Virus record (IMG/VR): IMGVR_UViG_3300009104_000014
Coordinates: 7,020-71,019 of that record
Direction: 5' to 3' (one strand)
Source: a virus
Length of the DNA: 64,000 bases
In this document: piece after piece, positions 1 through 19,392 of the stretch
Position numbering within the stretch: position 1 is the first letter of the stretch
Layout: every line of letters begins with the position of its first letter
Notes under the pieces: model-generated
What the model saw: only the letters and a program-made list of their open reading frames with translations
Told to the model about the DNA's origin: nothing
Databases searched by the model: none
Made by a program: the position numbers and the translations under genes

Positions 1-20
1 TGAGCAGAGGCAGACATAGG

Positions 21-374
21 TTGCTACAAACGCGAATCTACGATTGGTTGAGCGAAGGTAGAATAGCAACTGCCACAGAAATAATTGATTGGTATAAATC
101 AGCATTCAAAGGTGGATATACGAATGGGAAGAAGCCGTATGTGAGAGCGGCGAGGGGTTCGGGAAATATACCCAACGCAAGCACATTAGGCAACATCATG
201 CGTCGTAGCATTCTGTTTGAATGTGTAGAGAACGACAAGCATTCCCGCAAGCACAGAGTATGGGCGGCTCGCCCGTTAGAGGAAGTGGTAGAGAAAGCGA
301 TTCTTGCTAACTCACCACTTAGCAAATACCCCTCTTTCCTAAGGGAAGCAATAGAAATGGAGATGAAAGAATGA
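21..374 (+). CDS. winged-helix protein (DUF3860/HARE-HTH-like), paralog of 6324..6689; true start may lie upstream of the window
   Basis: Helix-'ATATEIIDWY'...'NASTLGNIMRRSILFECV' pattern; C-terminus 'PLEEVVEKAI..PLSKYPSFLREAI' matches 'PLKEAAAKAI..PIHKYPLILREAM' of 6324..6689. Confidence 0.6.
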   Translation: MLQTRIYDWLSEGRIATATEIIDWYKSAFKGGYTNGKKPYVRAARGSGNIPNASTLGNIMRRSILFECVENDKHSRKHRVWAARPLEEVVEKAILANSPLSKYPSFLREAIEMEMKE

Positions 375-796
375 GAACGAAAACATTACACACAATAGAC
401 ATAGGGCCGCAACACGGAAAGCAAACGATACTCCGCGCAATCGCGGAAGTAGACAGGTTGCTAAAGACAGGGTTATTGAGGCGACTCTCAATACAGAATA
501 GCATGATATTTGCTTATAGCCAACCTTGGGCTTCTAACTCGGAGATTCTTTACCAAATCCGATTACCATTCGATTTCAACAGAAAGCAACGAGAACCATC
601 AGACTCAGGGCCTTGGTTCACACCAACTACCGAAGAGGATAACTGGGTGCTATCTTATAGCAACGAGATATTCTCTAACCACACCTTGCTATTCGATTGG
701 CTAAACGAAGTAGTCCGAATAAATACAGGTGATAGGCTACGGATGATACCGACTGCGCCTGAGATATGGGCGGAGATGGATGGAGAGGATGAATGA
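371..796 (+). CDS. hypothetical protein
   Basis: 141-aa ORF with ATGA overlap coupling to both neighbours. Confidence 0.6.
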   Translation: MRTKTLHTIDIGPQHGKQTILRAIAEVDRLLKTGLLRRLSIQNSMIFAYSQPWASNSEILYQIRLPFDFNRKQREPSDSGPWFTPTTEEDNWVLSYSNEIFSNHTLLFDWLNEVVRINTGDRLRMIPTAPEIWAEMDGEDE

Positions 797-934
797 TGCG
801 CTCCTACGAGAGATTCACCGATGACCTTAAAACGGCGATTGCCTTAGTAGTTGATGAGGCGGTGAGCGACGAATGATATTATTCACAACGAAAATAGAAA
901 TAGCAATGGACTACAACCAAGGAGAGAGATACAG

Positions 935-1234
935 ATGAAAGAAGAAGAGATACTAAAGGACATATTGAAAGCAACGGAAAACCTTAGCCCTGCGGGGGTG
1001 AAGGCATTGGTAGAATCGTTGGTAAGGGATAGCACCCAACTAACCGTAGCGATAGTGAGATGCCTACAGGCCCTCAAAGCGATACAAGAAGGACTTGAAC
1101 CGTTGGGAGATGTTAGCAAGGACTTCCCCGAACTATCAAATAAAGTTGATGAGATAATGGAGAAGGTTATCCAATCTTGCCCTGATATATCAAGACAGGT
1201 AATCAGGGAAAGCCTCGAAGAGGGGGTTGAGTAA
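935..1234 (+). CDS. hypothetical helical protein
   Basis: 99-aa ORF, purine-rich RBS-like sequence upstream, abuts next ORF. Confidence 0.6.
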   Translation: MKEEEILKDILKATENLSPAGVKALVESLVRDSTQLTVAIVRCLQALKAIQEGLEPLGDVSKDFPELSNKVDEIMEKVIQSCPDISRQVIRESLEEGVE

Positions 1235-1963
1235 ATGGAGAACCTAACTGCATGGGTATTATCCACAGGAAGGGCCGACCCTGTCCCTATAGATGGGCTA
1301 TGGGCGGAACAACCGTTAGATACGGACTGGGTAGAGCATCTACAACACACATACCCTGACGAGTATTGGGCTATCGAAAAGATGCTATGCAACAACTATA
1401 CCGGCGAAGCACAATTAGCAAACGCCAATACACACAACGGACAGACATTCCCACACCCTGCTGATGGAACGAGGGTAGAGATATGCGGAATCCTATACAA
1501 CCTTAGCAACCAAGACGATATACGAACACCCTACAATACCAACTTAGGTTGCTTCGTTCTACATTGGAACCAAGACAAAGACCGAGATTCGCTAAAGCAA
1601 CATTTTGTTCGTGGTAGAGTAGTTATCATTTGTCGGTATTTAGCAAAGGGTGATGAAAGAGCAGATGATTTCATACCGGCTAAAGAATATCGCCCATTTA
1701 TCGCTAAGTCTAACGAGGTCATTGCTAATTTGGAAGTCAATGAGAACCCAATTATGATTCAATTAGAGGCCGAAGGCTACAACACAAAGGCATTACGCAA
1801 CATGGTTGAGCGAGGGGCTTTAGCAAGTGTGCGTGGTATGGACTTTGAACCCGAAATGGATGAGTTGATGGAGATAGCAACCCACATCCCAATTCCGGCG
1901 TTAGAGAGAATTATGAGGTCCCTAATAGATACTGATGAGATGCAAGAATGGTTGGGGGAATGA
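1235..1963 (+). CDS. hypothetical protein
   Basis: 242-aa ORF in a tightly packed operon; no family recognised. Confidence 0.7.
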   Translation: MENLTAWVLSTGRADPVPIDGLWAEQPLDTDWVEHLQHTYPDEYWAIEKMLCNNYTGEAQLANANTHNGQTFPHPADGTRVEICGILYNLSNQDDIRTPYNTNLGCFVLHWNQDKDRDSLKQHFVRGRVVIICRYLAKGDERADDFIPAKEYRPFIAKSNEVIANLEVNENPIMIQLEAEGYNTKALRNMVERGALASVRGMDFEPEMDELMEIATHIPIPALERIMRSLIDTDEMQEWLGE

Positions 1964-1966
1964 AAC

Positions 1967-2797
1967 ATGGAAGAACAGAATGATTTGGAATTGCTAAGTG
2001 GATGGATAGATGAACTGGTAGATGCGTATGAAGATGGTATGGATAATGTGCGTTTGGCCTATGGATATTTGGTTCAACTAATGGGAGCATTACATGGCAT
2101 AGGCTTGCCTTTGGACCCTGTAGAGGGTATGTTCATTATCAAGCACAACAAAAGCGAACCCAATGTTCTACACGACTCGATAGCAGAAACACTAACGATG
2201 ACTCAAGTTAGGCGAGTCCACTTGCTAATTGATACGGCATACGAAATGATACGACAAGAGGGAACTTATCCTGAGTCATTCGTCATGCACTACTCCACTC
2301 GACTGTATGAGAATGCAGTTATACACGCACACACCGGACATTCGATACCGGCTGACGAGATGTTGATTAAGACTATGGTTGCTATAATCGAAGAAGGGCT
2401 ACCAAAGACCTACAGTAAACAGGTAGCATTTGATATTGCCTTTGAAACAAAGTTGGCCTGTTCGCAACTAACTCTACAGAACTTCGCAAAAGCAGGGGTA
2501 AGTGGCTTTATCTTAGATTCTCGCGGGTTCGTTGCTATTGATGAAGAACACATACCAAAGGAATGCGAGCAGTTCCTTGCCTTCTTGTCCCATCACTTAG
2601 ACGAGATGGGCGGTAGAGCGAGAGCAAAGGCAAAGGGCGAGGACTCGGAGAAGTTAATCGAAGAAGAGATTGCTAAAATCATGGATGAAGACGAAGGGGA
2701 AAGGTTCATCCCACCTTCTTACCGTAGGCATTTTGAGGTCGGAGAAGATATGGACCCCGATTCAGATGAGAATGACGACGAGGTAGTGAGATGGTAG
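1967..2797 (+). CDS. hypothetical protein with acidic C-terminus
   Basis: 276-aa ORF; no family recognised. Confidence 0.7.
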   Translation: MEEQNDLELLSGWIDELVDAYEDGMDNVRLAYGYLVQLMGALHGIGLPLDPVEGMFIIKHNKSEPNVLHDSIAETLTMTQVRRVHLLIDTAYEMIRQEGTYPESFVMHYSTRLYENAVIHAHTGHSIPADEMLIKTMVAIIEEGLPKTYSKQVAFDIAFETKLACSQLTLQNFAKAGVSGFILDSRGFVAIDEEHIPKECEQFLAFLSHHLDEMGGRARAKAKGEDSEKLIEEEIAKIMDEDEGERFIPPSYRRHFEVGEDMDPDSDENDDEVVRW

Positions 2798-3354
2798 ACC
2801 ACCACACAGTAAAATTGAGTATCGAATTGATACCAAGCAACTCCTATGGGAACAACCTAAGGGGCCTTCTCAGAGGTTGCACATGGGATAGGTTGCGAAA
2901 AGCAACATACGAAGAGGCAGACCACCAATGCGAGATTTGCGGTAGCAACGGATTAGCACAGGGTAGAAAGCACCGAGTAGAAGCCCACGAAGTGTGGTCA
3001 TACGACGACGAAAATAGGATTCAGACATTGGAACGACTACAGGCATTATGCCCGTTATGCCATCAAGCAAAGCACATAGGCAGAAGCCTATCCGTAGGGG
3101 CCGGAGCAAGGACCGTTAGGCATTTAGCAAAAGTGAACCGTCTGACGAAAGAGGTAGCAGAAGATTACATCAACCGTTCTTTGGAAGAGCATACTCTCCG
3201 TTCTCACGGAGATGCTTGGTTGCTAAACATAAGTCATTTACTGACTCACCCTGCATTAACAGATGCAGACATTAGAGATTTACCCTACAATGTGGATGGA
3301 GTGTTTATATCCCATCCAATATCGGGTGATAACGAACACACAACAGAGGAATGA
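2791..3354 (+). CDS. HNH endonuclease
   Basis: CEIC...EAHEVWSY...LQALCPLCHQAKH: Zn-binding HNH signature. Confidence 0.85.
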   Translation: MVDHHTVKLSIELIPSNSYGNNLRGLLRGCTWDRLRKATYEEADHQCEICGSNGLAQGRKHRVEAHEVWSYDDENRIQTLERLQALCPLCHQAKHIGRSLSVGAGARTVRHLAKVNRLTKEVAEDYINRSLEEHTLRSHGDAWLLNISHLLTHPALTDADIRDLPYNVDGVFISHPISGDNEHTTEE

Positions 3355-3358
3355 GAAC

Positions 3359-3622
3359 ATGGATAGAAATGAGAGAAAAATAGCAAGAGGAAGCCTTGTT
3401 GGGCCTATCAGAACAACGAGTGGGAACACCTACCTGCGTTTGGATGATGTTAGCGCAATAACAACCAACACGAAAGACCACGAAGCAACATTGGTGGATA
3501 TACACTTGAAGAGTGGAACAATCTTCACCGTGTATGGTAGCGAATGGCGCATAGTCCAAGCAATGGGGTTGCCAATCGAAATAATCAATGGTGGCGATGA
3601 AGGAGTTGGTATGGATGAGTAG
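3359..3622 (+). CDS. hypothetical protein (start re-assigned to ATG 3359)
   Basis: In frame with track ORF 3263..3622; ATG lies just after the HNH stop, with GAGG upstream. Confidence 0.55.
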   Translation: MDRNERKIARGSLVGPIRTTSGNTYLRLDDVSAITTNTKDHEATLVDIHLKSGTIFTVYGSEWRIVQAMGLPIEIINGGDEGVGMDE

Positions 3623-3767
3623 TGACTGGGATTACTTTCAAGCAGAGCGAGATATGGGGCAGGTCTGCAAGCACTTAGCAAGCGCGAGCGCATCCAAGGC
3701 CATTAAGTCAAGAGCAACAAAGTTGCTAAACGCTATCACAAAAGAAGCAGAGGAACGGTCGGCATGA
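3615..3767 (+). CDS. small hypothetical protein (50 aa, not in ORF track)
   Basis: MSSDWDYFQAERDMGQVCKHLAS...; fills the gap and has an ATGA overlap with 3764. Confidence 0.55.
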   Translation: MSSDWDYFQAERDMGQVCKHLASASASKAIKSRATKLLNAITKEAEERSA

Positions 3768-4120
3768 AAGACGAATTGTTAGAACACATTTGGTATTACG
3801 AAATGGCCGATGAGAGGATGGAACGAACCACAGAGATATGGGATGAGATGGCTGACGACTTCATGCGCTCGCATGGTTGGGATGGGCCACACTTGGCGTA
3901 TGATACTAACAGAGATACAGGCACACTATGGGTGCTAATTGGTAGCAACCAAGTTGGCCTTGACTTAGTAGAGATATGGGAAGACACCGGTATTCCTGAG
4001 AGAGAAGGGGATAGGTTGCTAACTTCAATGTATGATTACGCAGAAGAACTTGCTTACGAGAACTGGATTATTAGCGGAGATGCCTTAGAATGGGAAGGGT
4101 GGTCGCCTGACGAAGTATGA
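3764..4120 (+). CDS. acidic hypothetical protein
   Basis: 118-aa ORF, translationally coupled. Confidence 0.65.
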   Translation: MKDELLEHIWYYEMADERMERTTEIWDEMADDFMRSHGWDGPHLAYDTNRDTGTLWVLIGSNQVGLDLVEIWEDTGIPEREGDRLLTSMYDYAEELAYENWIISGDALEWEGWSPDEV

Positions 4121-4133
4121 GAAATACCAAGTC

Positions 4134-4451
4134 TTGCCAACAAAGGGATTACTACTGATAGCAAAGAACGGAAAGATACAGAAAATCCGAGGGAACGAAG
4201 TATCAGTTAGATATGAAAGTAGCAACGCTACCTATTCGGAAGAGGAATGGTTTTGTCTGTTAGACAAAATCGGCGTGTGGATAATAGCGAGAAGCATCGT
4301 ATCAGCACCTGTTCAAATAGCAAGTAGCGTCTTAGCAGACCCAAGTCTAACTTGTGCTAACGCAGTATGGGCGGCTATGGAAGATAGCCAACGAGAAAGG
4401 TATACCCGCCGAAGACCAAAGTTGTTTGAGATGGAGTGGTTGAATGAGTAA
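4134..4451 (+). CDS. hypothetical protein
   Basis: 105-aa ORF with TTG start; start uncertain. Confidence 0.5.
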   Translation: MPTKGLLLIAKNGKIQKIRGNEVSVRYESSNATYSEEEWFCLLDKIGVWIIARSIVSAPVQIASSVLADPSLTCANAVWAAMEDSQRERYTRRRPKLFEMEWLNE

Positions 4452-4650
4452 AGACGAGCCACCGTTGCTACATTTAGCAAATGTAAACGGTCCTATTTGC
4501 GGATTCAAATATGAATCCAAGTGGAATGAAGAGATGCAAGAATACGAATGCACTTTCCCAAAGAAATACCTTGACGATTCACTAACTAAATTACGACCAC
4601 GATGCCCTGATTGCTTACGGGTTTATAGGGAGCAGTATACCAAGGAATAA
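4444..4650 (+). CDS. small putative Zn-binding protein
   Basis: H..ICG...CPDC pattern in 68 aa. Confidence 0.55.
   Translation: MSKDEPPLLHLANVNGPICGFKYESKWNEEMQEYECTFPKKYLDDSLTKLRPRCPDCLRVYREQYTKE
4619..4630 (+). promoter_or_regulatory. archaeal TATA-box promoter (GGGTTTATAGGG class) driving the non-coding region
   Basis: Same motif lies 29-32 nt before ATGs at 6324, 11679, 15723 and 19111; here +30 falls on 4652, the start of a long stem. Confidence 0.7.
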
Positions 4651-4651
4651 T

Positions 4652-4781
4652 TGGTGGTAGTTAGAAAGAGTTGCTAATCTAACCGAGGGGTCGTATTTGT
4701 ATTACAGAAAAGGCCGATTGTTGGTGAAGCATTTGTTGTTATTGTTTGTCTTTCTTGTGTCCCTCTTTCTAATTACCACCA
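4652..4781 (+). ncRNA. putative structured ncRNA 1 (~130 nt)
   Basis: 19-bp closing stem 4652-4670/4763-4781 (one G-U pair), irregular internal hairpin, U-rich internal strand, no credible ORF, starts at predicted TSS. Confidence 0.6.
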
Positions 4782-4790
4782 CACACAAAA

Positions 4791-4986
4791 GGGGGAATAG
4801 CAACTAAAGACTGGCGCGGCTAACGAAAACAAGGTGTTAGCCCAAAACCTATACCATGTTCGGTCTAAATGTGGAAGTAATTAGCCACAGTATAGGGATG
4901 ACGGCATCCCGCGAATCGTATGAAAGAAGGATAAGCCAAGAAGGGTCGGAGAGAGATTAGACAATTGCGCCCGTTGCTATTCCCCC
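4791..4986 (+). ncRNA. putative structured ncRNA 2 (~196 nt, multi-stem)
   Basis: Perfect 14-bp closing stem 4791-4804/4973-4986 with nested helices 4813-17/4967-71, 4818-24/4836-42, 4863-68/4957-62, 4870-74/4885-89, 4895-4900/4905-10. Confidence 0.6.
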
Positions 4987-5001
4987 ACCTTACAATAAGA
5001 G

Positions 5002-5346
5002 ATGAGTAAAATGGCAAACAGAAGAAATAAACATCGTTTAACCAAGCGTGGAAGATGGGATAGAAGCAAGGCTTTGGAATGTGCCGCAAGGTATCTCGTT
5101 GAACAAGGCAGACCATTGTCTGCCGCCACCGTATATGATAACATGAGATTCAAAGATAGAAGGAAGAGAGATGGGGGCGGTATTGGCAATCTCTATAGAA
5201 ACAATAGAACCGCACAATCATACGGACAAATCGCGGCAAGGATGCTAAGATGCCCTGCCTTTAAGCAAATTGGCAAAAACCCAATCCTTTTCTCTTGTGA
5301 TGCAGAAGCCTATGAAAATTGGTGGCCGGTTGACCCACTACAATAA
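5002..5346 (+). CDS. basic winged-helix protein (DUF3860-like paralog)
   Basis: 'RYLVEQGRPLSAATVYDNM...SYGQIAARMLRCPAFKQIG' wHTH pattern. Confidence 0.55.
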   Translation: MSKMANRRNKHRLTKRGRWDRSKALECAARYLVEQGRPLSAATVYDNMRFKDRRKRDGGGIGNLYRNNRTAQSYGQIAARMLRCPAFKQIGKNPILFSCDAEAYENWWPVDPLQ

Positions 5347-5391
5347 ATGCTCAAGCAAACCGTGATATATCCGTAGATACCTACTCGGTAT

Positions 5392-6120
5392 ATGCGACAC
5401 CCGTTGCTATTCGGTGGGAACTTCCTACTTACAACACCGGATTTGATAGAAGTTGTAGATTTCAAAGCATGGAGAAAGGTAAACAACCCAAGAGAGAATA
5501 GAAAAAGACGCAGATTCTCACCGTATCTAACACTTAGATGTGGGGAAACCTTGCTAAAATTGGTTGGTTATAGTGCAGTATGGGAGTTCTTAGATGCAAT
5601 CCAGCCTGATTTACCAAGAATACCAATCAATTCGGTTATGAAAGGATATGAGTTCTATGATATAGAAACCATGTCTTTCTTGGAAGAGGTTGCTTGGTTC
5701 TTGGTAGAGAGTGATGAAGCGTTTATTGGATTCAAGATAAACGATAATGGTTTAGCAAGAGCAGTCAAGAAACCACTTAGCAACATCCCGATAGCCAGCA
5801 AAGAATACACAGGAGCGTCAGAATTGACGCTTTTTGATGCCACAAGATATTATGTTGCTATCTTAGAAAGCAAATGCACCAGCAAATACTTTGTTTACAC
5901 CATAGGTTATGGTGTTAGACCCCTGAAAGGAAAGGTGTTTAGCAAGATAGATGAAGCGCAGATGTATGCTGTAAGAACCACCCATGAGATAGCAAGCACA
6001 GAGAATGTTATCGGCCACCAAATCCTGAGGTTCGGGATGTTTGATGAAGAGGTAGATTCATTGGAGAATGAGTTATTCTTTCAGTTATTGAACGAAACTG
6101 AAAACCAAATTACTACTTAG
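5392..6120 (+). CDS. hypothetical protein
   Basis: 242-aa ORF; TATA-like TGATATAT 29 nt upstream (leaderless). Confidence 0.7.
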   Translation: MRHPLLFGGNFLLTTPDLIEVVDFKAWRKVNNPRENRKRRRFSPYLTLRCGETLLKLVGYSAVWEFLDAIQPDLPRIPINSVMKGYEFYDIETMSFLEEVAWFLVESDEAFIGFKINDNGLARAVKKPLSNIPIASKEYTGASELTLFDATRYYVAILESKCTSKYFVYTIGYGVRPLKGKVFSKIDEAQMYAVRTTHEIASTENVIGHQILRFGMFDEEVDSLENELFFQLLNETENQITT

Positions 6121-6290
6121 CAGTAAAGCGGTTTGCTAATTCTTTCTATTCTCTATAGGACATTAAGGGAATATACTGTAGTATAACTCCCTGATATACC
6201 CCTTGAACAATAAAAAGAATAGAAAAAGTGTGATACTGCTCCGCAGTAATATGGTCTAAAATGAACAGAAACAATAGAAAGAATAAGTGG
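6072..6290. repeat. ~215-bp imperfect palindromic element, copy A (origin-like)
   Basis: ATTCTTT at 6075 and 6139, AAAGAAT at 6214 and 6278, CAGTA/TACTG pair, central TATACT-gt-AGTATA; homologous to 59695..59910. Confidence 0.75.
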
Positions 6291-6300
6291 GTTTATACGG
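6289..6300 (+). promoter_or_regulatory. TATA-box promoter of the helicase operon
   Basis: GGGTTTATACGG about 32 nt upstream of ATG 6324. Confidence 0.65.
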
Positions 6301-6323
6301 ACAACCACATACCATAGGTATGA

Positions 6324-6689
6324 ATGGGTAGCGGAAGAGCAGGTCAAACAAAGAGATTACAACAAACCGTCTATAGGCTGATACAGGAAGAGGGGCCGGC
6401 TACGGCTGATTATTTAGCGCGTCGCTACAATGACCGCCCTTATCATGCTGGCAGACAGACTCGCGGTATGAATCACGGAACCAACGCAAGAAGGTTAGCG
6501 GCAGTTATGGCTACAAGTGTTCTATTCGAGCCGGTAGGTGTAGTGAATATACCAAAAGTGGGGGCGGTTGCTATGTGGGGAACTGTCCCTCTGAAAGAAG
6601 CGGCCGCTAAAGCAATTGCTTCTAAAAGGCCCATACACAAATACCCACTAATACTACGCGAAGCAATGAAGGAGATGATGATACAATGA
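6324..6689 (+). CDS. winged-helix protein (DUF3860-like paralog)
   Basis: 'LQQTVYRLIQEEGPATADYLARRY...TNARRLAAVMATSVLFEPVG'; clear paralog of 21..374. Confidence 0.65.
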   Translation: MGSGRAGQTKRLQQTVYRLIQEEGPATADYLARRYNDRPYHAGRQTRGMNHGTNARRLAAVMATSVLFEPVGVVNIPKVGAVAMWGTVPLKEAAAKAIASKRPIHKYPLILREAMKEMMIQ

Positions 6690-7420
6690 GAGAGAGTGCT
6701 AACGATGTGGATATTTATTGGGAGAAAGAAATAGAGGGCTTGATAACAAGAGTTGTTATCGTCTGCGCCCAAGAACCATGCCCCATCCCTACAATCCTAA
6801 CCGACAATATAGACAAAGACGGAGTAAGGGTTGCTACGGTCTTATCCAAATTAGGTCGAGTTATGCCCTTCTTTGATATTGATTCTGATTTTGGAACGGT
6901 GATTTACCAACACAACCAAACATTGGTTATCAACTTCCGCGACTTTCATTCGATAGCGGGGGGAAACCATTGGTTATTCGGTTATCCTATTGTTAGAGAA
7001 ACAGTAGAGTCAGTATTGAACCGTCTATCGGAGCAACCATCAATGCCTTCTGTAGTAATAGCAACATCTACTGTTTATTGTGCGGAGCCGAAGAAGTATC
7101 TCGTAAAGAGTGAAAGTGAATCAACTCATTTTAGCAAGCAATTCAATGAATTGGAAGAAGAGATACTTCCGATGTTCGCGTATGTGAGCGCGTGGTTAGC
7201 ACAACAGAGAGGGATTGGGGCTACTATTGTTTTCTTCCGAGCAACAATAGACCAAGTAATGACTCAACAGATGTTTGCCGATGGAGTAGGCTTATTCTCT
7301 ATGATAGAACTGCCTGTAGACATAGATAAGGCGCAAGATTCTTATGATGAATACGAATCCGAGTGGGGTGTAGGTGAAATGCTTGAGTCAGATTCAGGAG
7401 TTGGGGGAATGTTTACTTGA
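6686..7420 (+). CDS. hypothetical protein, possible PAC2 (proteasome assembly chaperone)-like fold
   Basis: Size and 'SAWLAQQRGIGATIVF' resemble the PAC2-family C-terminal motif; weak similarity recalled by eye. Confidence 0.35.
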   Translation: MRESANDVDIYWEKEIEGLITRVVIVCAQEPCPIPTILTDNIDKDGVRVATVLSKLGRVMPFFDIDSDFGTVIYQHNQTLVINFRDFHSIAGGNHWLFGYPIVRETVESVLNRLSEQPSMPSVVIATSTVYCAEPKKYLVKSESESTHFSKQFNELEEEILPMFAYVSAWLAQQRGIGATIVFFRATIDQVMTQQMFADGVGLFSMIELPVDIDKAQDSYDEYESEWGVGEMLESDSGVGGMFT

Positions 7421-8763
7421 TGGTTAATGATAGTGAGATGGATATATTCGATGAGTTGCAGTCTTTCTGTGATGCCAACCACTATGTAGCGGTTGATGAT
7501 AAATTACCAATCTTCATTTGTAGTGTGGGAGCGCACATATTCAATGCGATAAACAAATGTTCTCGTTGCGATTTCACAGTAGAGAACCCCGTTGATGGTT
7601 ATTTCTCAATCCCCAATTGTCCCTTGCGACATGATAATAACCCAATATACACACCTATGAGTAGACTTGCAGATACAAGAGTCCATATCCTCATGCGAGG
7701 AAAGAAAGGTTCAGGAAAGAATGTTCTAATTGACTTATTTTTAGCGGAAGGGACTGGCCTACTATGGAATCCCGAAGGATTCAACGGCGTTGGTTTTAGA
7801 ACCATGATAGGTGCTAACTCTATCACAGAAGCGGGATTATTCGGTAGTGTGAATGAAGATGGTTATGTTGCCGGAAGACCTGTAGCGAGAGAGTTATGCG
7901 GTGGGTTCCTTGGGTTTGAAGAGTTCTCATCCCTAACAGATGCTACAAAGAAAGACCACAGTATGGATATGAAGAACCAGTTGCTAACAAGTCTTGATAG
8001 CGGGAGAGTGAACAAGGGTATGAGGCATGGTTGGGTTAGATACAATACGCGCTATACCTGTTGGGCGGGAACTCAACCCGCAAGGTTTGAATTGGAGTCG
8101 GGTCTTGACCGTAGGTTCTTCATTATAGAGATTGAGATGAGTCCTACAATTGAATTGGAATACAAAATAGCACAAAATAAACAGGCTCGCATGACTCCAT
8201 CAGAAAGAGCGGAGTTAGCAACTAAGGCTATGGAAATGAGAGCGTGGTTCTACAAGCGCATGGAAGATGCTATACTAACCCCACCAACGAGTGTGTCTTT
8301 CACCCCTACTTTTGAGGAATGGGTTTTGCGAGATACCGTAAGGTCATTTGAGGCAGATTTGTTTAGAAGATTATCAATTGGATATGCTATGATGCAACCC
8401 GATTATGAGGGTGGGAAACCGTTGCTCGTTGATATTGATGACCGACTCTCACTTATCCTATCCCAATCATTAGCAATGAGAAGGACAGTTATGGATGCTG
8501 ATGTTGCTCTGATTAAGGCCATGTATTGGGGCCAAGAAATACCAAAGTCTACTATGCTAAAGGAGATTGCTAAGGTAATTACCAACGGTGATTATCAAAG
8601 TGCTAAGAGATGGGTAGAGGAAAACCTTGTGGGGGAGTCTTGGTATGAAGAATATACCCCGAAGGTAGTTGGTAAAAGAGGAAGAAGGGGGGTGGCTTGT
8701 CGTATAGGAGAGAAGCCGCCGGAACCCGACGAGTTCGCTACATGGGGTAATGGTAATGCGTAG
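7417..8763 (+). CDS. mcm: MCM-like replicative helicase (AAA+), N-terminally reduced
   Basis: Walker A GKKGSGKN, 'SITEAGLFGSV' (cf. MCM SSxAGLTA), Walker B 'GFEEFSS', arginine finger 'GLDRRF'. Confidence 0.75.
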   Translation: MMVNDSEMDIFDELQSFCDANHYVAVDDKLPIFICSVGAHIFNAINKCSRCDFTVENPVDGYFSIPNCPLRHDNNPIYTPMSRLADTRVHILMRGKKGSGKNVLIDLFLAEGTGLLWNPEGFNGVGFRTMIGANSITEAGLFGSVNEDGYVAGRPVARELCGGFLGFEEFSSLTDATKKDHSMDMKNQLLTSLDSGRVNKGMRHGWVRYNTRYTCWAGTQPARFELESGLDRRFFIIEIEMSPTIELEYKIAQNKQARMTPSERAELATKAMEMRAWFYKRMEDAILTPPTSVSFTPTFEEWVLRDTVRSFEADLFRRLSIGYAMMQPDYEGGKPLLVDIDDRLSLILSQSLAMRRTVMDADVALIKAMYWGQEIPKSTMLKEIAKVITNGDYQSAKRWVEENLVGESWYEEYTPKVVGKRGRRGVACRIGEKPPEPDEFATWGNGNA

Positions 8764-9007
8764 AAAAAGGGTTCACTTTATCCATTCTTGTTTAGAATAC
8801 TTGCTAAAAGCGGGACCGACTACTACCATAGAACTTATTGATAATGTTCGCAATAGTAGAGGTAAGAAGCACCATTATAGACCAAGTGTCGCTGAGTTGG
8901 GGCAGTTATTGAGAATTGATAAGAGGTTTGTAGTAGTAGGGACTACTACAGAATCCATTAGTCTATGGTCATTAGCAGAAGAGTTAGCAACAGGTGAAGA
9001 GGAATGA
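8750..9007 (+). CDS. winged-helix protein (DUF3860-like paralog)
   Basis: 'LEYLLKAGPTTTIELIDNV...PSVAELGQLLRIDKRFVVVG'. Confidence 0.6.
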   Translation: MVMRRKRVHFIHSCLEYLLKAGPTTTIELIDNVRNSRGKKHHYRPSVAELGQLLRIDKRFVVVGTTTESISLWSLAEELATGEEE

Positions 9008-9051
9008 CTGATATATCACTTAAAGGAAATATGCTTTGAAGAGGACTGAAC

Positions 9052-9153: not shown

Positions 9154-9156
9154 ATT

Positions 9157-9777: not shown

Positions 9778-9911
9778 ATGGTCTTGATAGTGAAACCGAA
9801 CAATGGTGCGAAGAGCGTTTTGCGCGACTGGCTCTATATCGGACTGTCGGGTCAGCGTTGAACATCGTTCTCTCTATGGTTGTAATTGCTAAGTTGTTTG
9901 GGTGGATATGA
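9774..9911 (+). CDS. 45-aa membrane microprotein (not in ORF track)
   Basis: ATGA overlaps at both ends; hydrophobic C-terminus ALNIVLSMVVIAKLFGWI. Confidence 0.55.
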   Translation: MNGLDSETEQWCEERFARLALYRTVGSALNIVLSMVVIAKLFGWI

Positions 9912-10198
9912 TGAGTAGAGAGGCCGGTAAGAAAATTAAGTGGCGACCACATTTTAACCAATTGATTGCTCGCCCCATTCCTAAGTCAGAGTTCCCTAAG
10001 ATAGTGGAAAAGATGATAGAAGATGGTTTGGTCTGTGTCCTACATTTGGGGGGCTACCAATGGTATAGTGGTAGATACCGAGTGTCTGCGTCGGCCGTCA
10101 GAGAGATATGGTGTCTTTCTCAATCCCAATGGAGCAGGTTCATGGGATGGGTTTATAGCCATGACCCGTTCTCATCAATTGATGACGAAGACATATAG
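9908..10198 (+). CDS. hypothetical protein
   Basis: Trp-rich ORF with ATGA-coupled start. Confidence 0.6.
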   Translation: MMSREAGKKIKWRPHFNQLIARPIPKSEFPKIVEKMIEDGLVCVLHLGGYQWYSGRYRVSASAVREIWCLSQSQWSRFMGWVYSHDPFSSIDDEDI

Positions 10199-10436
10199 AC
10201 GAAAAGCAGTAGCGGAAGCAGTCAAACAATGGGCGAGAAGCGAATGGTTCACCGCAGGTGAGTTGTTAGACTTAGCGTCACAGTTGAATACCCAACCAAG
10301 GGGTGGTTTAACAGTATTCTCGGTGTCGAGAATACTAACTGGGTTTGAGGCTAAAGGCGTGGTAGAATCAAGAAAAAAGTTGGGTAAAAAAATATACAGG
10401 AGAATAGAAAATGGGCGTGGTTATTTACACGAATAG
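10182..10436 (+). CDS. winged-helix DNA-binding protein (start re-assigned to 10182)
   Basis: 'WFTAGELLDLA...LTVFSVSRILTGFEAKGVVESRKKLGKKIYRR' classic wHTH. Confidence 0.65.
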   Translation: MTKTYRRKAVAEAVKQWARSEWFTAGELLDLASQLNTQPRGGLTVFSVSRILTGFEAKGVVESRKKLGKKIYRRIENGRGYLHE

Positions 10437-11055: not shown

Positions 11056-11225
11056 CTGCAAGTGCGGGGGCTTGTTGGATTGCGTTTTGGATAATTGCTA
11101 TATCGTATTTTTTCATCCCTCTCGGCGTTGGTTTACTCCGTATTTGGCTTAGAGGTATTGTTGGTAGTGGGGAAGCCCCTACTACAGAAGAGTGGACTTG
11201 GGTATCTTCATTCAACAACCAATGA
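11052..11225 (+). CDS. 57-aa membrane microprotein (not in ORF track)
   Basis: ATGA overlap; hydrophobic stretch CWIAFWIIAISYFFIPLGVGLL. Confidence 0.5.
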   Translation: MTASAGACWIAFWIIAISYFFIPLGVGLLRIWLRGIVGSGEAPTTEEWTWVSSFNNQ

Positions 11226-11253
11226 TATACCCGTATTTGTCTGTATTGAATAG

Positions 11254-11655
11254 ATGAGTGCGAACAATAGACGGTTGCGTCGGCTCGTCGTGGATATACT
11301 GTTCACAGAAGGGCCATTAACGAGGACTCAAATAGCAGAAAAACTTGCTAATTTACGCTCGCTTAGAGAGGTCCCAAGCGACAACAGTCTTTCGAGTGTG
11401 CTTGCTAAAAATGTTCAGTTGGAATCAGTAGGCTTTGCTAAAGTAGAGAAACTAAATGGGAACAAAACAAAACACATGGTGTTTGATATTAAGCGTGATT
11501 TGATTAGCAACCATGAAGAGATAGAACAAACGAGGCCAATGTCTTGTATGACTGCTCAAGAGAGAACCTTAGCATCAAGGTGTCCTCAATGCGGAAGACA
11601 TAGAATACTTCCAAAGGATAAGAATGTCTGTCTTCATTGTGTTAAGGGTTTATAG
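11254..11655 (+). CDS. DUF3860-like winged-helix protein with C-terminal Zn finger
   Basis: 'LVVDILFTEGPLTRTQIAEKL...PSDNSLSSVLAKNVQLESVGFAKV' plus CPQC...CLHC. Confidence 0.65.
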   Translation: MSANNRRLRRLVVDILFTEGPLTRTQIAEKLANLRSLREVPSDNSLSSVLAKNVQLESVGFAKVEKLNGNKTKHMVFDIKRDLISNHEEIEQTRPMSCMTAQERTLASRCPQCGRHRILPKDKNVCLHCVKGL

Positions 11656-11657
11656 GG
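11646..11657 (+). promoter_or_regulatory. TATA-box promoter (leaderless)
   Basis: GGGTTTATAGGG, TTTATA 30 nt upstream of ATG 11679. Confidence 0.65.
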
Positions 11658-11678
11658 AGTATACTCTCCCTTTGAAGT

Positions 11679-13247: not shown

Positions 13248-13252
13248 GATAT

Positions 13253-14476: not shown

Positions 14477-15447
14477 TGTCTTGGGGACAAGCCGTTCCTT
14501 CCTCTACGGAGAAGCCCATTGAAGAGAGGACCGTCTACAATAAGGATTACTATACTGGTCTACTGACTGAATCAAAGGTCAACCAATTCCCAGTTAGAAT
14601 AGCGGCAGTTGGTAAAGAAAACACCGCTAAAACAGGATTGCTAATTGATATGGCCCTCAACAACACCGATAAGGATATTATCATCTTGGATATTGATAAT
14701 AGCGCGTCACAGACGGTTATGGTGAATTATCCCAATAACAACCGAATAAAAGTAATCCCCATCTATGATGCGGCTGATAGTTCCATCTTCAATGAAGACA
14801 ACTCTACTAATTGGGTTGCTTTGGTTGATAAAATGAGTTGGTTCATGCGTATCTTAGGCGAACAGAGTAGAAAGGGAGAAGTGGGAGCAGTAATCATAGA
14901 CGGTTGCTCTACTTTCCTTAAGTGGTGTGAGTTCAGTATGACCGATGTTCTCCTTAGAAGGGGAGTAATAGAGCAAGAGGGGGATGCTTTTAATCAGAAG
15001 GAATGGCGAACTCGAAATCAACTCTTCCGTGATGTTATCAATAGAGCGCATCAACTTCAAGTTCCCTTCGTTGGTTATACCTTCCATCTGAAAGATGTAA
15101 AGGAATATATGGATATTGGCAACGGCCAAAAGGGATTAACTAAGGTTGGTGAAACCCCTGAGTGGGAAAATGGAACAAAGAGATTGTTTTCGCAACAGGT
15201 ATGGCTCACCCGATATAGTAAGAAAGGAGATTTGGCGGCAGGGGTCAAGAAGGATGATAGCCTAAATAGCAACGAGTGGGTTGTTAGAGCAACCATTAGT
15301 GAAATGAAAGGTCTTCATCAAGAATACTTGGGGACAACACACGATGTGCTTAGTGTAAATGATGGAGAGGTCACATGGTATGGTCTTCCTTTCTTGCATT
15401 GGAATGGCAAGAACGAGAAAGAGGCTACCAATAATGGCGAGGCGTAA
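14476..15447 (+). CDS. RecA/RadA-superfamily ATPase (Sak4/AAA_24-like recombinase)
   Basis: Variant Walker A GKENTAKT, 'IIILDID', Walker B 'VIIDG'; follows the SSB gene; GTG start overlaps upstream TAG. Confidence 0.7.
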   Translation: MSWGQAVPSSTEKPIEERTVYNKDYYTGLLTESKVNQFPVRIAAVGKENTAKTGLLIDMALNNTDKDIIILDIDNSASQTVMVNYPNNNRIKVIPIYDAADSSIFNEDNSTNWVALVDKMSWFMRILGEQSRKGEVGAVIIDGCSTFLKWCEFSMTDVLLRRGVIEQEGDAFNQKEWRTRNQLFRDVINRAHQLQVPFVGYTFHLKDVKEYMDIGNGQKGLTKVGETPEWENGTKRLFSQQVWLTRYSKKGDLAAGVKKDDSLNSNEWVVRATISEMKGLHQEYLGTTHDVLSVNDGEVTWYGLPFLHWNGKNEKEATNNGEA

Positions 15448-15745
15448 TTATTTTGTTAAACGATGGATAATTACTGCCCTTTCTACAGTAGATACACCAG
15501 TCACCGCGAGAGCGGTTGTTGATATAATCAAACAACACCGCGACCCCAAAATAAATAGGAACTCTCGCCGTTCTGCTAACATATCAGCCGTAAAGATTGG
15601 GGCTATAATGTCGAGAATGGAAGAGGTAAAGGTGTTCCGAGCATCAAGCAACTCAGAAAGAAACCTGTATCAGATTAGACCGCAGTATAGGGGTTTATAT
15701 GGGGACAGGGAGAGAGGTATATATGAGCGGAAGAAAAAACAATGA
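15434..15745 (+). CDS. winged-helix protein (DUF3860-like paralog; start re-assigned to 15434)
   Basis: 'WIITALSTVDTPVTARAVVDII...ISAVKIGAIMSRMEEVKV...NLYQI'. Confidence 0.55.
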   Translation: MARRNYFVKRWIITALSTVDTPVTARAVVDIIKQHRDPKINRNSRRSANISAVKIGAIMSRMEEVKVFRASSNSERNLYQIRPQYRGLYGDRERGIYERKKKQ

Positions 15746-16562
15746 TGTTGCGTTCAACAATACTGCTCTTCAAAATGCTCTAAGGGCCGCGAGAAGATTC
15801 ACATTTGTTGGTGGCGCAAAGCAACCCCAATGTTATGCTTGCATCATTAAAGTCGGACCGACGGTTGCTAAAATTGTAAGCGGAGTGAAAGACGGGATAA
15901 CGAGTGTGCATGATATAGCAATCACTTTGGAAGAACCGGCAACCGAATGCGAACTTTGCATCCCTAATTTGAATGATGTTATAGGGGCGTTGAAAACACA
16001 TGGGGATATTGTATATCTATCACACAAACCAAATGGTAATTTGCTAATTCATTCAAATAAAAGACAAACGACATTTATGTCTTCTCCTTTAGCAAAGGCT
16101 TATCCCTCTTCTCGCAACTCAATAATCAAACAACATCAAGATGCAGTAGAGATAGCAAGTCGCTTCGATAAAGACATGGCTATTTACACCGATACCAAGG
16201 GGAAAAAACATAGCCCTGTATGTATTATCAACTTAAAGCGAGATATATTGGTTGATGCTTTGTCGGTTGCTAATTTGAACGGACAGAACGAATCAACCTG
16301 TAGTATGGAACCAATGGAAGATTCTACCTTCATTAAGACTGGTAATACTTTGAAAGGTCAGACTTCTACTCTTATTCATCCCCACCAAATACCAACGGAA
16401 CCCTTCAAGTTCGGCGGTGGTTTAGAAAACCTACTTCCTGTCTTCGGAGAAGAAATTAAATTACACATTTACGACATGAGAGATTTTGGGGGAAAATATG
16501 TCTTGGCGTTTAGCGACGGCCATGCTTTGGTTTTACAGGTAGGTGTTCCCCATGAGGTTTAG
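15723..16562 (+). CDS. probable DNA sliding clamp (divergent PCNA/beta-clamp fold)
   Basis: ~280 aa with two alpha/beta repeats, upstream of polB in a genome with RFC; promoter GGGTTTATATGG 29 nt upstream. Confidence 0.55.
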   Translation: MSGRKNNDVAFNNTALQNALRAARRFTFVGGAKQPQCYACIIKVGPTVAKIVSGVKDGITSVHDIAITLEEPATECELCIPNLNDVIGALKTHGDIVYLSHKPNGNLLIHSNKRQTTFMSSPLAKAYPSSRNSIIKQHQDAVEIASRFDKDMAIYTDTKGKKHSPVCIINLKRDILVDALSVANLNGQNESTCSMEPMEDSTFIKTGNTLKGQTSTLIHPHQIPTEPFKFGGGLENLLPVFGEEIKLHIYDMRDFGGKYVLAFSDGHALVLQVGVPHEV

Positions 16563-16863
16563 ATGTAGTGTTTGTGATAAGGTAATGCAATACCATATAG
16601 AGTGTAGCGTTGGTTCATCTAACCATCATATTCAATGCGAGTGCGGAACTACCTTTGTAGTAAACATAGCCGCTCACAAAGAAGACAATAGAGATAGGGG
16701 GTATAGAGATGCAGATACTCTTCGTTCACTATACGAGGAACAGGGAAAAACAATGCAACAACTTGCTTGGAAATACGCAGTATCACCAATGACTATCAAT
16801 CTATGGCTTAAGAGGCATGGAATAGCAACGAGAAGAAGAGGAAGGGTCAAGCGTGATAATTGA
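16552..16863 (+). CDS. Zn-ribbon plus HTH protein
   Basis: CSVC...CECG then 'LRSLYEEQGKTMQQLAWKYAVSPMTINLWLKRHGIATR'. Confidence 0.75.
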   Translation: MRFRCSVCDKVMQYHIECSVGSSNHHIQCECGTTFVVNIAAHKEDNRDRGYRDADTLRSLYEEQGKTMQQLAWKYAVSPMTINLWLKRHGIATRRRGRVKRDN

Positions 16864-19090
16864 GCGCAAGGGCCGTAATAAAATCACTATCCGACGGCGA
16901 CAAGAAGACGGAAAGCGGATAACAGAGGAACATATTTGCCAACCATTCTTCTATGTAGAAGATAATGCAGTCCCCCTACAACACAATGGGGTTTTGCGCT
17001 ATGAAACAGGGCATAAGGGGGTCTATGGTCAACCACTAACTAAGGTATATACCCATACTCCCGAAGACATTTACGAAATAAGGCAAGCATTCCCCCATTT
17101 AGAAACATGGGAAGCAAACATACCGTATGTAAACAGAGCATTAGCAGAGAATGGTTTATTGCCTGATAATTACAACCATAGAACTTGGTATTTAGATTGC
17201 GAATGGTCCGTTAATACAGGGAAACTAACAATCATGGTTGTCTATGATACATTTAGCAACGACTATTTCGTATTCTTTACCCACCCTGATTACGAAGCGG
17301 GATACCATGATACATTTCCTTGTCTAAATCACCCTGATGGTATAACAGAACTTAATCTTAGCAAACCCGCTATTGCCTTCAAGAACGAGAAAGCAATGCT
17401 AAGAGCATTTGCTAAACACTTAAGGAAACAAGACCCCGACATAATTACTGGTTGGAATGTGGTTAATGCGGATATTCAAAAAATCATTAAGAGATTCCAA
17501 GCAAACGGGTTGGACCCAAGAAAATTATCCCCTATCAATAGGATTAGGTATACCTTTGGTGAGTGGGCGCAACCAATAGGTGGTATCAATGTAGTTGATA
17601 TGATGTTATCATTCACAAGATTATGGGTAATGAAGAACGGACAATTACCAAATAAGAAATTAGAAACGGTTGCCTCGGAATGTTTAGGAGAAACAAAGGT
17701 AGAGTTAGCAGACGGACACGATACATATTACTCTGACTTTGGAACATACCTATCGTATGCTATCCAAGATGTGAAATTGTTGCCTAAATTGAACTCATTG
17801 AATAATTGTATAGAACATTACACGGCTATACAACATATCGTTGGTTGCGATATACGAACCACCCCATTTATCACTAAGATTCTAACTGTTCTTGCTCTGA
17901 GAGATAAGGACTTTGACCTAAGAATACCAACCAAACCGCAATTCGACTATGAACCCTATGATGGAGCATCAATAGAAATTAGCAATGCTGGCGTATATGA
18001 GAATGTTGCTATCTTGGATATACAGGCTATGTATCATTCTAATGTTGATTTACACAACATAGGACACGAAACATTAGATAGCAACGGTAAGGATTGTGGA
18101 AACGGCGTATGTTTTAGCCAAGGGAAACCAAGTCTGTTGCTAAGACAAATGAATAAGATGACTACTCTTAGGCAAGAATACAAAGCACAACTTAGACTTG
18201 CTAAAACAGACGAAGAAAGAAGCCGTTATGATGCTTTACAATTTGCTACAAAATCATTGGTTGCTTCTTTGTATGGTGCGGCAGGGGATTCAAAGTATGG
18301 GCTTTATCACCCGAAGGTAGCGGCGGCTATCACATACACATCTCGGATGACTCTCAAAAGATTAAGAACGGAATGCGAGAAGAGGGGGCATGAAGTCCTA
18401 TATTCACACACCGATTCTGCTTTTGTTGTTGTCCCAAACCCCGAAACAGGGTTGCTATTGACTGCCGAATTGAACGAAACAATGAGTCCTATTGTGTGCG
18501 AGTTCGAGAAATGGTGTTCTGCTATGTTGCTAAAAGCGAAGAATAGGTATGCTGGTTTAGTAGAGTGGACCGATGGTAGACAACATGATGTTGAATTATA
18601 TGTTAAGGGGATTGAATTAAAGCAAGCAAAGATGTTCCCTCTCGTCAAGAACTTGCTAACTTATGTGATTAAATCTATACTGTTAGGTTCCGACCAAGGT
18701 TATGTGACTCGGCAGATAGTAGAAATCATCGAAGATGTGTTGTCTGAAAAATATCCTATAGAAGACCTGTGTATGAAAACGGAACTCAAAAAGGATTTGA
18801 GCAAATACAAGGTTTTGTCGGGTGCATCAGCCGGTGCTAAATGGGCTAATGATAATCTCGGTAAAGGTTATCGCAACGGAAGCACTTTCCTATTGACTTT
18901 GGATAGCAACGGGAAATATATTGCCTTCGATGAACCGAGCGATATAGAGGGGTTTGCTACTGTGGGGTATTACCACATTTTAGAAAGATTCGTAGTAAAG
19001 AAGGTAGAACCATTTTACGAGTTGGCCGAGTGGGATATGCAACCCATATACAATGCTCTACATAGATTACCAACAGTTGGGTTTATATGA
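16853..19090 (+). CDS. polB: family B DNA polymerase with 3'-5' exonuclease
   Basis: ExoI YLDCEW, ExoII GWNVVNAD, ExoIII YAIQD; polymerase motifs DIQAMYHS, KSLVASLYG, YSHTDS, KNRYAG, KGIE. Confidence 0.95.
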   Translation: MIIERKGRNKITIRRRQEDGKRITEEHICQPFFYVEDNAVPLQHNGVLRYETGHKGVYGQPLTKVYTHTPEDIYEIRQAFPHLETWEANIPYVNRALAENGLLPDNYNHRTWYLDCEWSVNTGKLTIMVVYDTFSNDYFVFFTHPDYEAGYHDTFPCLNHPDGITELNLSKPAIAFKNEKAMLRAFAKHLRKQDPDIITGWNVVNADIQKIIKRFQANGLDPRKLSPINRIRYTFGEWAQPIGGINVVDMMLSFTRLWVMKNGQLPNKKLETVASECLGETKVELADGHDTYYSDFGTYLSYAIQDVKLLPKLNSLNNCIEHYTAIQHIVGCDIRTTPFITKILTVLALRDKDFDLRIPTKPQFDYEPYDGASIEISNAGVYENVAILDIQAMYHSNVDLHNIGHETLDSNGKDCGNGVCFSQGKPSLLLRQMNKMTTLRQEYKAQLRLAKTDEERSRYDALQFATKSLVASLYGAAGDSKYGLYHPKVAAAITYTSRMTLKRLRTECEKRGHEVLYSHTDSAFVVVPNPETGLLLTAELNETMSPIVCEFEKWCSAMLLKAKNRYAGLVEWTDGRQHDVELYVKGIELKQAKMFPLVKNLLTYVIKSILLGSDQGYVTRQIVEIIEDVLSEKYPIEDLCMKTELKKDLSKYKVLSGASAGAKWANDNLGKGYRNGSTFLLTLDSNGKYIAFDEPSDIEGFATVGYYHILERFVVKKVEPFYELAEWDMQPIYNALHRLPTVGFI

Positions 19091-19110
19091 ACAAGTGTGG
19101 TGGTAGGGTT

Positions 19111-19392
19111 ATGAGAAGGTTAGAGGGCAGAATGGAAAAATGGTGGGCGTTAAAGTGGATTCGCCAAATGTGGGAAGAAAGAAACCACGAACCATTTACT
19201 ACTGTAGACGCAGAAGATTGGTTAAGAAACAATGTTCACTACGCAAAGAGGATGCGTTGTTCTGCCGCTACCCTATCAGGTAAGTTCAGTAGAAGTAGAT
19301 TTATACAACCTGTTGGTTATACTAAAGTCAGAGGTTTTACGGGAAATACCAGTCAATACAGGACATACGAATGGAGAGATTGTGATGAATAG
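19111..19392 (+). CDS. DUF3860-like winged-helix protein
   Basis: 'EPFTTVDAEDWL...SAATLSGKFSRSRFIQPVGYTKVRG...YEW'; promoter GGGTTTATATG 29 nt upstream. Confidence 0.6.
   Translation: MRRLEGRMEKWWALKWIRQMWEERNHEPFTTVDAEDWLRNNVHYAKRMRCSAATLSGKFSRSRFIQPVGYTKVRGFTGNTSQYRTYEWRDCDE

Follow-up and report, generated by a model that had tools for sequence, protein, structure and literature searches.

Background

In the surface ocean, magroviruses rank with the most abundant viruses of archaea; both the viruses and their hosts are uncultured. Archaea of Marine Group II (MGII) are thought to be the hosts that such viruses infect. Archaeal virus genomes often carry several genes for small winged-helix or ribbon-helix-helix proteins, such as the F-93 type proteins of fuselloviruses, and these are presumed to be transcription regulators; several small winged-helix genes in one archaeal virus are unsurprising in themselves. 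Here we examined a magrovirus-type genome, IMG/VR record IMGVR_UViG_3300009104_000014, a complete 71,019-bp record with direct terminal repeats, of which bases 7020-71019 (64,000 nt) make up the window whose coordinates are used throughout. A first-pass annotation had proposed that about eight open reading frames (ORFs) of this window, designated c1 to c8, encode paralogous winged-helix proteins that resemble DUF3860 and are interleaved with replication genes.

The structure available for DUF3860 (Pfam PF12976), 2OD5, was one of five reported in 2008 for novel ocean-metagenome families (PMC2557142). It was deposited as a 'putative nucleic acid binding protein', and the table of DBD-Hunter enters it as DNA-binding. 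Neither 'DUF3860' nor 'PF12976' occurs in the literature searched, and the main texts of the magrovirus papers that were checked by term make no mention of helix-turn-helix (HTH) or winged-helix proteins. Our analysis gives DUF3860 and 2OD5 a first biological setting, as a near-invariant, multi-copy MGII gene with diverged relatives in four to seven fixed slots of the viral replication module, and the family offers a host-virus marker.

Results

By comparison of sequence profiles, c1, c2, c3, c4, c6, c7 and c8 are shown to be diverged paralogues, constituting one family of small (85-133 aa) and basic proteins. Little of this is visible at the level of single sequences. Pairwise BLASTP among the eight proteins linked c1 to c3 (33% identity over 118 aa, E 1.5e-12), with a weak similarity between c3 and c6 as the only other match, and the eight single proteins gave nothing over threshold against Pfam and PHROGs. 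The first-pass annotation had noted the relationship of c1 and c3 through to their C-termini, and the two share a two-helix C-terminal extension. Iterated hidden Markov model (HMM) searches were run over the six-frame ORFs of 96 related loci and of the whole genome (7,535 ORFs, 4199 of them, or 56%, antisense). When begun with c1, c2, c3 or c4, the searches arrived at the same set, c6 and c8 included, c8 being recruited at E 8.6e-7. The c3- and c4-seeded searches returned 198 and 209 hits, of which 196 were common to both, and the c7-seeded search reached c6 and c2; c5 never merged. As a control for drift, the strand of the iterated hits was recorded, and all of them (229/229) lay on the coding strand. 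They were 64-171 aa long and comprised 175 unique sequences in 26 BLAST clusters.

Profiles built from orthologues only are less prone to drift, and HMM-HMM (HH) comparison of such profiles gave probabilities of 100% for c1-c3, 92% for both c3-c6 and c1-c6, 88% for c3-c4, 85% for c1-c4, 76% for c4-c6 and 72% for c1-c2, with pairs involving nine control small ORFs at 4% or less. A shallower HH comparison with 56 loci, in which only c1-c3 was clear, was superseded after 40 loci were added. A core profile constructed without the c7 and c8 clusters matched c7 at 94.9% and c8 at 78.9%, with controls at 10.6% or less, and matched c5 at 66.8% over its first 54 aa only. Run as an HMM over the 322 six-frame ORFs of the genome, the core profile placed the eight candidates at ranks 1 to 8, with out-of-sample E values of 8.7e-6 for c8, 1.6e-4 for c7 and 0.077 for c5 (rank 8); the next ORF scored 0.48. 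The third-ranked ESM-feature cluster for c8 carries PF12976 on 63% of its members (score 0.90), which we treat as a lead only. Thus, of the approximately eight paralogues originally proposed, seven are upheld by the orthologue profiles, the core profile and the ranking among 322 ORFs, whereas c5 is borderline.

The alternative that there is no single family, and that unrelated small proteins reached a generic winged-helix signature independently, would account for the mostly undetectable pairwise identity, for the resemblance of c5 to Fur DNA-binding domains (DBDs) instead, and for the fact that the family profile also matches a multi-HTH protein of the sigma-70 family. We consider it highly improbable, in that the controls stay at their low HH values even with an HTH-bearing ORF at 16543 among them, the candidates head the list of genome ORFs, different seeds reach the same 196 proteins, and 2OD5 is the only PDB chain to score below E 0.25.

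The match to 2OD5 connects the family to DUF3860. The family profile was derived from a 96-sequence alignment (A1) that includes the seven window proteins, and against the PDB it found 2od5_A at E 1.9e-9, the next chain being at E 0.25. Against 1.84 billion representative sequences it gave 905 hits at E <=1e-3 and 85 at <=1e-10, the best of which were unnamed proteins from marine 'Prokaryotic dsDNA virus sp.' records on contigs of up to about 73 kb. A further homologue search with the family alignment returned 29 hits, none bearing a precomputed Pfam domain; these were named 'hypothetical', apart from one automatic 'Fe2+ or Zn2+ uptake regulation protein'. Protein P0126 was matched at E 1.4e-9, and its cluster holds a 'DUF3860 domain-containing protein [Candidatus Thermoplasmatota archaeon]' as well as the 91-aa P0245, which occurs on 389 contigs, the longest of 1.6 Mb. 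P0245, used as positive control, reached 131.9 bits with PF12976 and matched 2OD5 at E 2.7e-30; these scores and its occurrence indicate that 2OD5 represents a cellular protein.

When an alignment of 65 unique host DUF3860 domains was compared with the viral proteins by HH, the probabilities were 96.2% for c1, 94.8% for c3, 92.4% for c6 and 80.5% for c4, and 0.7% for c5; the viral core profile reached 97.5% (E 5.8e-12), with controls at 0.8% or less. Conversely, the viral core HMM scored 55.7, 44.0 and 23.5 bits on the three host paralogues. In the profile alignment, identity between the viral copies and the host protein is about 19%, and a tree of the direction of transfer between host and virus could not be supported by some 75 alignable columns at <20% identity. 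The likeness to Thermoplasmatota DUF3860 proteins that had been proposed for these ORFs is therefore genuine at the profile or superfamily level (E 1.9e-9 to 2OD5, 80-96% by HH to the host domains) but falls below the Pfam cut-off, and by these sequence comparisons the family is shown to be a remote homologue of DUF3860 and not a member by Pfam's rule.

A cellular homologue, as the first-pass annotation anticipated, exists in MGII archaea. A scan of species genomes with P0245 found 151 relatives, the best 80 of which are 80-100% identical to it and come from records titled Marine Group II, Poseidoniales, Thalassarchaeaceae or unclassified Euryarchaeota, Methanobacteriota or Thermoplasmatota archaeon. 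On the chromosomes of Marine Group II (Poseidoniales), DUF3860 is highly conserved and has two to three copies per genome. Three copies, two of them in tandem, were present in 4/4 genomes, and DUF3860 scored above cut-off in 42/201 sampled genomes of the phylum. The surroundings are those of housekeeping genes: on a 1.6-Mb contig the neighbours are aldolase, FBPase and MoaC genes, and the third copy lies among UbiA, OTCase and IMPDH genes. The tandem pair faces, across a spacer, an 874-aa protein without a Pfam match (4836-8255 of locus L113). A search of species genomes with the c6 alignment gave 177 pattern matches, none of which was confirmed, so that no close c6-type gene was found in the cellular genomes searched.

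Predicted structures agree with the winged-helix fold that had been proposed. The AF2 model of c3, computed from the 96-sequence alignment, has a pLDDT of 90.5 and the order helix-helix-loop-helix-hairpin-helix-helix, with helices at residues 6-23, 28-37 and 55-64, strands at 68-76 and 80-87, and then two extra C-terminal helices; the variable basic loop between helices 2 and 3 is modeled at low confidence. Foldseek placed 2OD5 first (probability 1.00, TMt 0.66, E 8e-3), ahead of winged helices from TFE-alpha, PadR, MarR, forkhead and Orc1, and no match reached E <=0.001. In VIA the c3 model gave a tie between 3elk (Z 8.4), 2OD5 (Z 8.3; root-mean-square deviation (rmsd) 4.0, 83 aligned residues) and 1sfx (Z 8.2). 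The c5 model, based on 7 sequences, has a pLDDT of 79.7, with helices at residues 3-16, 25-35 and 45-57 and strands at 61-66 and 69-74. Fold matches of both c3 and c5 are almost wholly winged HTH proteins. For c5 the top Foldseek matches are the Zur and Fur DBDs (TMq 0.72, rmsd 2.1 A, 25% identity), and the c5 profile aligns with Zur across the whole DBD at E 0.026. The C-terminal metal-binding dimerisation domain of Fur is absent from c5 and its 6 orthologues, which are only 82-90 aa long. From sequence and model together, c5 is probably a different, Fur-DBD-like winged helix.

The family recurs throughout the related viruses, with several copies at fixed positions of the replication module in every related magrovirus-type contig examined. 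Complete genomes hold 7 copies here and 4 in each of five other complete records. In a survey of 38 helicase-centred loci, nearly all had a c3-type gene some 2.4-2.6 kb upstream of the point where the helicase-like ATPase gene ends and a c6-type gene 1.6-3.2 kb past it. In 26/38 loci a family member starts in the post-helicase slot itself, defined as -80 to +150 nt relative to the end of the ATPase gene, and the occupants of this slot belong to at least seven different sequence clusters. The slot is filled by c4 in the present genome, where the c4 start overlaps the 3' end of the ATPase gene by 14 nt, and by the c2 sequence type in other magroviruses.

All eight ORFs were found on the + strand at the positions first annotated (Table 1), with the exception of the c1 start. 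The true start of c1 is an ATG one base outside the window (genome 7019), not the TTG at 21, and the closest relative (L060) is the only one in which an orthologue of c1 was seen. Starts of orthologues back the short forms of c5 (10182) and c7 (15434), and GGTTTATA boxes 31-32 nt upstream back those of c5 and c8 (19111). The basic N-termini that had been described are confirmed, the first 15 residues holding 3-6 K/R and the isoelectric point being 8.9-11.1 for all eight. The most conserved type among related viral loci is c6, with 45 unique orthologues. Its invariant residues are N4, N5, R7, R9 and R10, which form an N-N-x-R-x-R-R arm at the N-terminus, and C110, C113, C126 and C129; the arm and the four cysteines are kept even where the polymerases of the viruses share only about 50% identity. 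Pfam zinc-ribbon matches of c6 are weak. The c2 protein scores E 5e-20 with the core HMM, a value that is in-sample.

Table 1. Coordinates of the small winged-helix-type ORFs, promoter-like boxes and palindrome in the window.
Feature	Position	Strand	Description
c1	1..374	+	124 aa; c3 paralogue with the same two-helix C-terminal extension
c2	5002..5346	+	114 aa; HH 72% to c1
c3	6324..6689	+	121 aa; winged helix, then two C-terminal helices
c4	8750..9007	+	85-aa minimal member; HH 85-88% to c1/c3
c5	10182..10436	+	84 aa; Fur-DBD-type winged helix, borderline or separate from the family
c6	11254..11655	+	133 aa; winged helix and C-terminal four-cysteine zinc ribbon
c7	15434..15745	+	103 aa; 14-nt overlap with the end of the AAA_24-like ATPase gene
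c8	19111..19392	+	93 aa; probable member, begins 21 nt past polB
GGTTTATA boxes, all (start positions)	4620, 6290, 10150, 11647, 13201, 15692, 19080, 28189	+	
GGTTTATA box	51966	-	
GGTTTATA box	6290..6297	+	34 nt ahead of c3 ATG
GGTTTATA box	10150..10157	+	32 nt ahead of c5 ATG
GGTTTATA box	19080..19087	+	Within the polB 3' end, 31 nt ahead of c8 ATG
GATATAC, TATA-like	11224..11230	+	About 30 nt ahead of c6 ATG
AT-rich imperfect palindrome	6072..6290		AAAGAAT/ATTCTTT boxes, inverted repeats; directly upstream of c3

Several members had been predicted to lead transcripts from a TATA box of their own, and the upstream regions support this. The sequence GGTTTATA occurs in 8 copies on the + strand and 1 on the - strand, with each + copy 31-43 nt before a start codon and with copies ahead of c3, c5 and c8. 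This spacing fits archaeal TATA promoters with leaderless mRNAs, as read from the sequence. Judging by the copy at 15692, the gene annotated from 15699 may instead begin at the ATG at 15723. No ORF of >=50 aa lies between the copy at 4620 and c2, an interval for which ncRNAs had been proposed on first inspection. A TATA-like element was then counted at -38 to -20 in unique upstream regions of the related loci, with internal ATGs as the control (9.5%). It was present in 30/36 regions for the c6 type and 18/29 for the c1/c3 type, and in 0/14, 0/9 and 0/6 for the c2, c4 and c7 types, respectively, so that the family splits into promoter-led and operon-internal copies.

The palindrome upstream of c3 has a second copy at about 59695-59910, and the two copies share 77% column identity. 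Among related viruses, c3-type genes are preceded by a gap of 110-230 nt that is 56-76% A+T and has 1-5 AAAGAAT/ATTCTTT boxes in 24/26 loci, against a background of 0.17 boxes per 300 nt. The position of this box-bearing gap beside c3-type genes would make the c3 type the best candidate binder of the element.

A different target, the hexamer TTGCTA, had been put forward for the proteins as viral nucleoid components. Copies of TTGCTA (123) and TAGCAA (101) amount to 224 in the whole genome against 42.7 expected, an observed-to-expected ratio (O/E) of 5.2. Nucleoid or chromatin-type proteins that read this motif, or decoys that compete with the host DUF3860 protein, would be consistent with that excess, with the small size and very basic nature of the proteins, and with the near-invariance of the host homologue (80-100% in the best 80 loci), as expected for a core DNA-associated protein. 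However, the excess is confined to a close clade (L003/L060, L061 and L062, O/E 5.5-9.1), whereas the family is present in all related loci; the next clade (L002, L038 and L098) has an O/E of 0.45-0.74 and yet 3-4 family members per locus. Across 52 loci, motif excess does not follow member density (rho 0.09, p 0.5), contrary to the correlation of paralogue number with motif density that might have been expected across magroviruses. In addition, seven differing recognition helices suit site-specific binding better than generic coating, and copies with about 19% identity to the host protein are too diverged for the close mimicry that had been suggested. The reading of TTGCTA by these proteins gains no support, and we regard nucleoid proteins or decoys as an improbable explanation.

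The genes in the first 20 kb of the window lie on the + strand, and those recognised encode a family-B DNA polymerase (PolB), an RFC-like clamp loader, a dNMP kinase, a PD-(D/E)XK nuclease and an AAA_24-like ATPase. No Orc1/Cdc6-type initiator was found among the module genes scanned. The gene set agrees with the description of magroviruses by Philosof et al. 2017 (PMC5434244), in which MCM is listed among the core genes. PolB has 56 relatives on IMG/VR contigs, and a 448-aa P-loop ATPase encoded at 7417-8763 has 40. The latter had been named 'MCM' on first inspection; sequence searches against Pfam, PHROGs and the PDB gave nothing for it except a hint of a P-loop, and it is highly conserved, with 71% mean column identity over 20 sequences of relatives. 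By ESM features it lies closest to clusters of viral hypothetical proteins, in one of which 10% of the members carry the SF3-type PF00910. As its identity as MCM could not be confirmed by sequence, we call it a helicase-like P-loop ATPase. The placement of c4, c7 and c8 at the ends of module genes is confirmed; of the names first given to those genes, the searches verified polB but not 'MCM' or 'recombinase'.

Two other small ORFs lie in the module. The first, at 16543-16863 just before polB, is of DNA-binding type with a Cys-rich N-terminus and an HTH-like C-terminus, has 46 unique homologues in the loci, and falls outside the winged-helix family (HH <=10.6%). The second (98 aa, 9902-10198) lies just before c5; the related viral loci hold 44 unique homologues of it, and it does not match the family.

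Discussion

Based on fold, charge and layout, we think it fairly likely that the family is a virus-owned set of site-specific DNA-binding regulators that govern expression of the replication module. Each paralogue would bind double-stranded DNA through helix 3 and the beta-hairpin wing, assisted by the Arg/Lys-rich N-terminal arm and the variable basic loop between helices 2 and 3, and divergence of these binding parts would give each copy a separate target. The promoter-led copies, of the c6 and c3 types, may be regulators made from leaderless transcripts, the c3 type acting most likely on the AAAGAAT-box palindrome just upstream of its own gene. In contrast to these, c4 and c7, which overlap ATPase genes, and c8, which follows polB, would be produced together with those enzymes and might tune or target the same module.

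Several results weigh against this reading or against parts of the evidence for it. Matches of the family profile to its own genome and to the PDB are not out-of-sample for the seven window proteins. The profile also touches generic HTH proteins, such as a sigma-70-family protein matched at E 2e-9 when 4 stretches are summed. The direct tie to DUF3860 is uneven among the copies: HH probabilities to the host domains are 0.3% for c2, 0.8% for c7 and 2.1% for c8, so that these three are linked to host DUF3860 only through other viral copies. The PF12976 cut-off of 27 bits is reached by none of the eight proteins, c4 scoring 12.8 bits (E 0.12) and the other seven giving no match; among 96 viral relatives PF12976 gave 7 matches at E <=0.1 (best 4.9e-4), a six-frame scan of the genome with its model was negative, and neither c4 nor c6 as a single sequence retrieved 2OD5 from the PDB. 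Structure models cover c3 and c5 only, the Foldseek E values are weak (best 8e-3), and Z scores of 7-8 are in what VIA terms its 'middling' range. Finally, winged helices may bind proteins or RNA rather than DNA.

Two large proteins illustrate the breadth of the profile. P0065, a 1034-aa protein from a 911-kb contig, and the 837-aa P0135, which bears the name sigma-70 family, match it in 7 and 4 separate stretches, respectively. These are probably generic HTH repeats, and the family profile is thus not wholly specific.

A second possibility, which we hold to be rather unlikely, is that the paralogues are replication factors that mark origin-like palindromes, where they would load or anchor the helicase, recombinase and polymerase of the virus, as viral versions of an origin-linked DNA-binding protein of the host. 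The seven genes are all in the replication module, the starts of c4 and c7 overlap ATPase genes at their 3' ends, polB precedes c8, the post-helicase slot holds a family member in 26/38 loci, and the AT-rich palindrome with its boxes adjoins the c3 type. On the host side, the spacer of the tandem DUF3860 pair contains a 13-mer resembling an origin recognition box (ORB), exact in L113 and present with <=2 mismatches in 23/53 host loci against 0.05 per kb elsewhere. We take this 13-mer to be an ORB/Orc1 box by its likeness to archaeal ORB sequences, and its link to an origin is a lead only. Set against this, the 13-mer is missing from 30/53 host loci even with 2 mismatches allowed, the palindrome is no more than a candidate origin, and at least seven sequence clusters in the post-helicase slot would be unusual for the fixed subunit of a conserved enzyme. 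The 13-mer was also considered as a viral element and discarded, as it is not enriched in the virus (3 matches vs 2.24 expected).

In its most developed form, the DUF3860 fold would be a lineage-specific replication-start factor of Marine Group II that viruses copied and multiplied; the c3 type would recognise the palindrome as the viral origin, and the transcript-linked copies would deliver the helicase-like ATPase, the RecA-like ATPase and PolB. This is a speculative proposal to which we give little credence. If true, it would amount to a virus-encoded, multi-paralogue system for origin recognition and loading.

The proteins could instead be protein-binding modules rather than nucleic-acid binders, in the manner of the C-terminal winged-helix domain of MCM, Cdt1 or ESCRT-II. 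Gene overlap with enzyme genes, the rapid divergence of the post-helicase slot and the presence of Cdt1 and ORC winged helices in the fold lists could be read in this way. The high isoelectric points, the Arg/Lys-rich N-terminal arms and the nature of the best sequence and fold relatives, namely DNA-binding regulators and 2OD5, argue otherwise and render it an improbable account. A complex prediction for the helicase-like ATPase with c4 scored 0.00, which is neither support nor counter-evidence. We also considered c4 as a detached winged-helix domain of MCM and found no support for this, the family profile matching no MCM chains in the PDB.

As hypotheses, we accordingly place site-specific regulators ahead of replication-start or replisome accessory factors, with nucleoid proteins that read the motif in last place. 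The analysis names candidate regulators together with candidate cis elements, the GGTTTATA promoters and the AAAGAAT-box palindromes, all of which can be tested in vitro without cultivation.

Among described proteins, the Fur family is the closest to c5, which at 84 aa is like the DBD of Zur (3mwm) and FurB (2o03) and lacks the metal-sensing dimerisation domain. PadR proteins dimerise through an architecture of winged helix plus C-terminal helix, and the c3 model aligns with 3elk and LmrR over both of these parts (residues 1-121, Z 7-8.4, again 'middling'); c1 and c3 have no Pfam or PDB sequence match to PadR. Regulators of the F-93 type are, like the viral family, small basic proteins with a DNA-binding fold. 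Unlike them, the genes described here constitute one paralogous family, occupy fixed slots of the replication module and are homologous to a gene specific to the host lineage. That gene product, the small MGII protein of PF12976 known from an ocean metagenome through structural genomics as 2OD5, shares with the viral family its winged-helix fold, profile homology, size class and order of elements, i.e., a basic N-terminus, helix 1, a G-x-x-T helix 2, a helix 3 with S-xx-L-xx-L and a wing. The viral copies differ from DUF3860 in falling below the Pfam cut-off at about 19% identity, in a longer, variable and basic loop between helices 2 and 3, and in their additions, which are two C-terminal helices in c1 and c3 and a four-cysteine zinc ribbon in c6. 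They differ also in number, with 4-7 diverged copies per virus compared to 2-3 conserved copies of DUF3860 per host genome.

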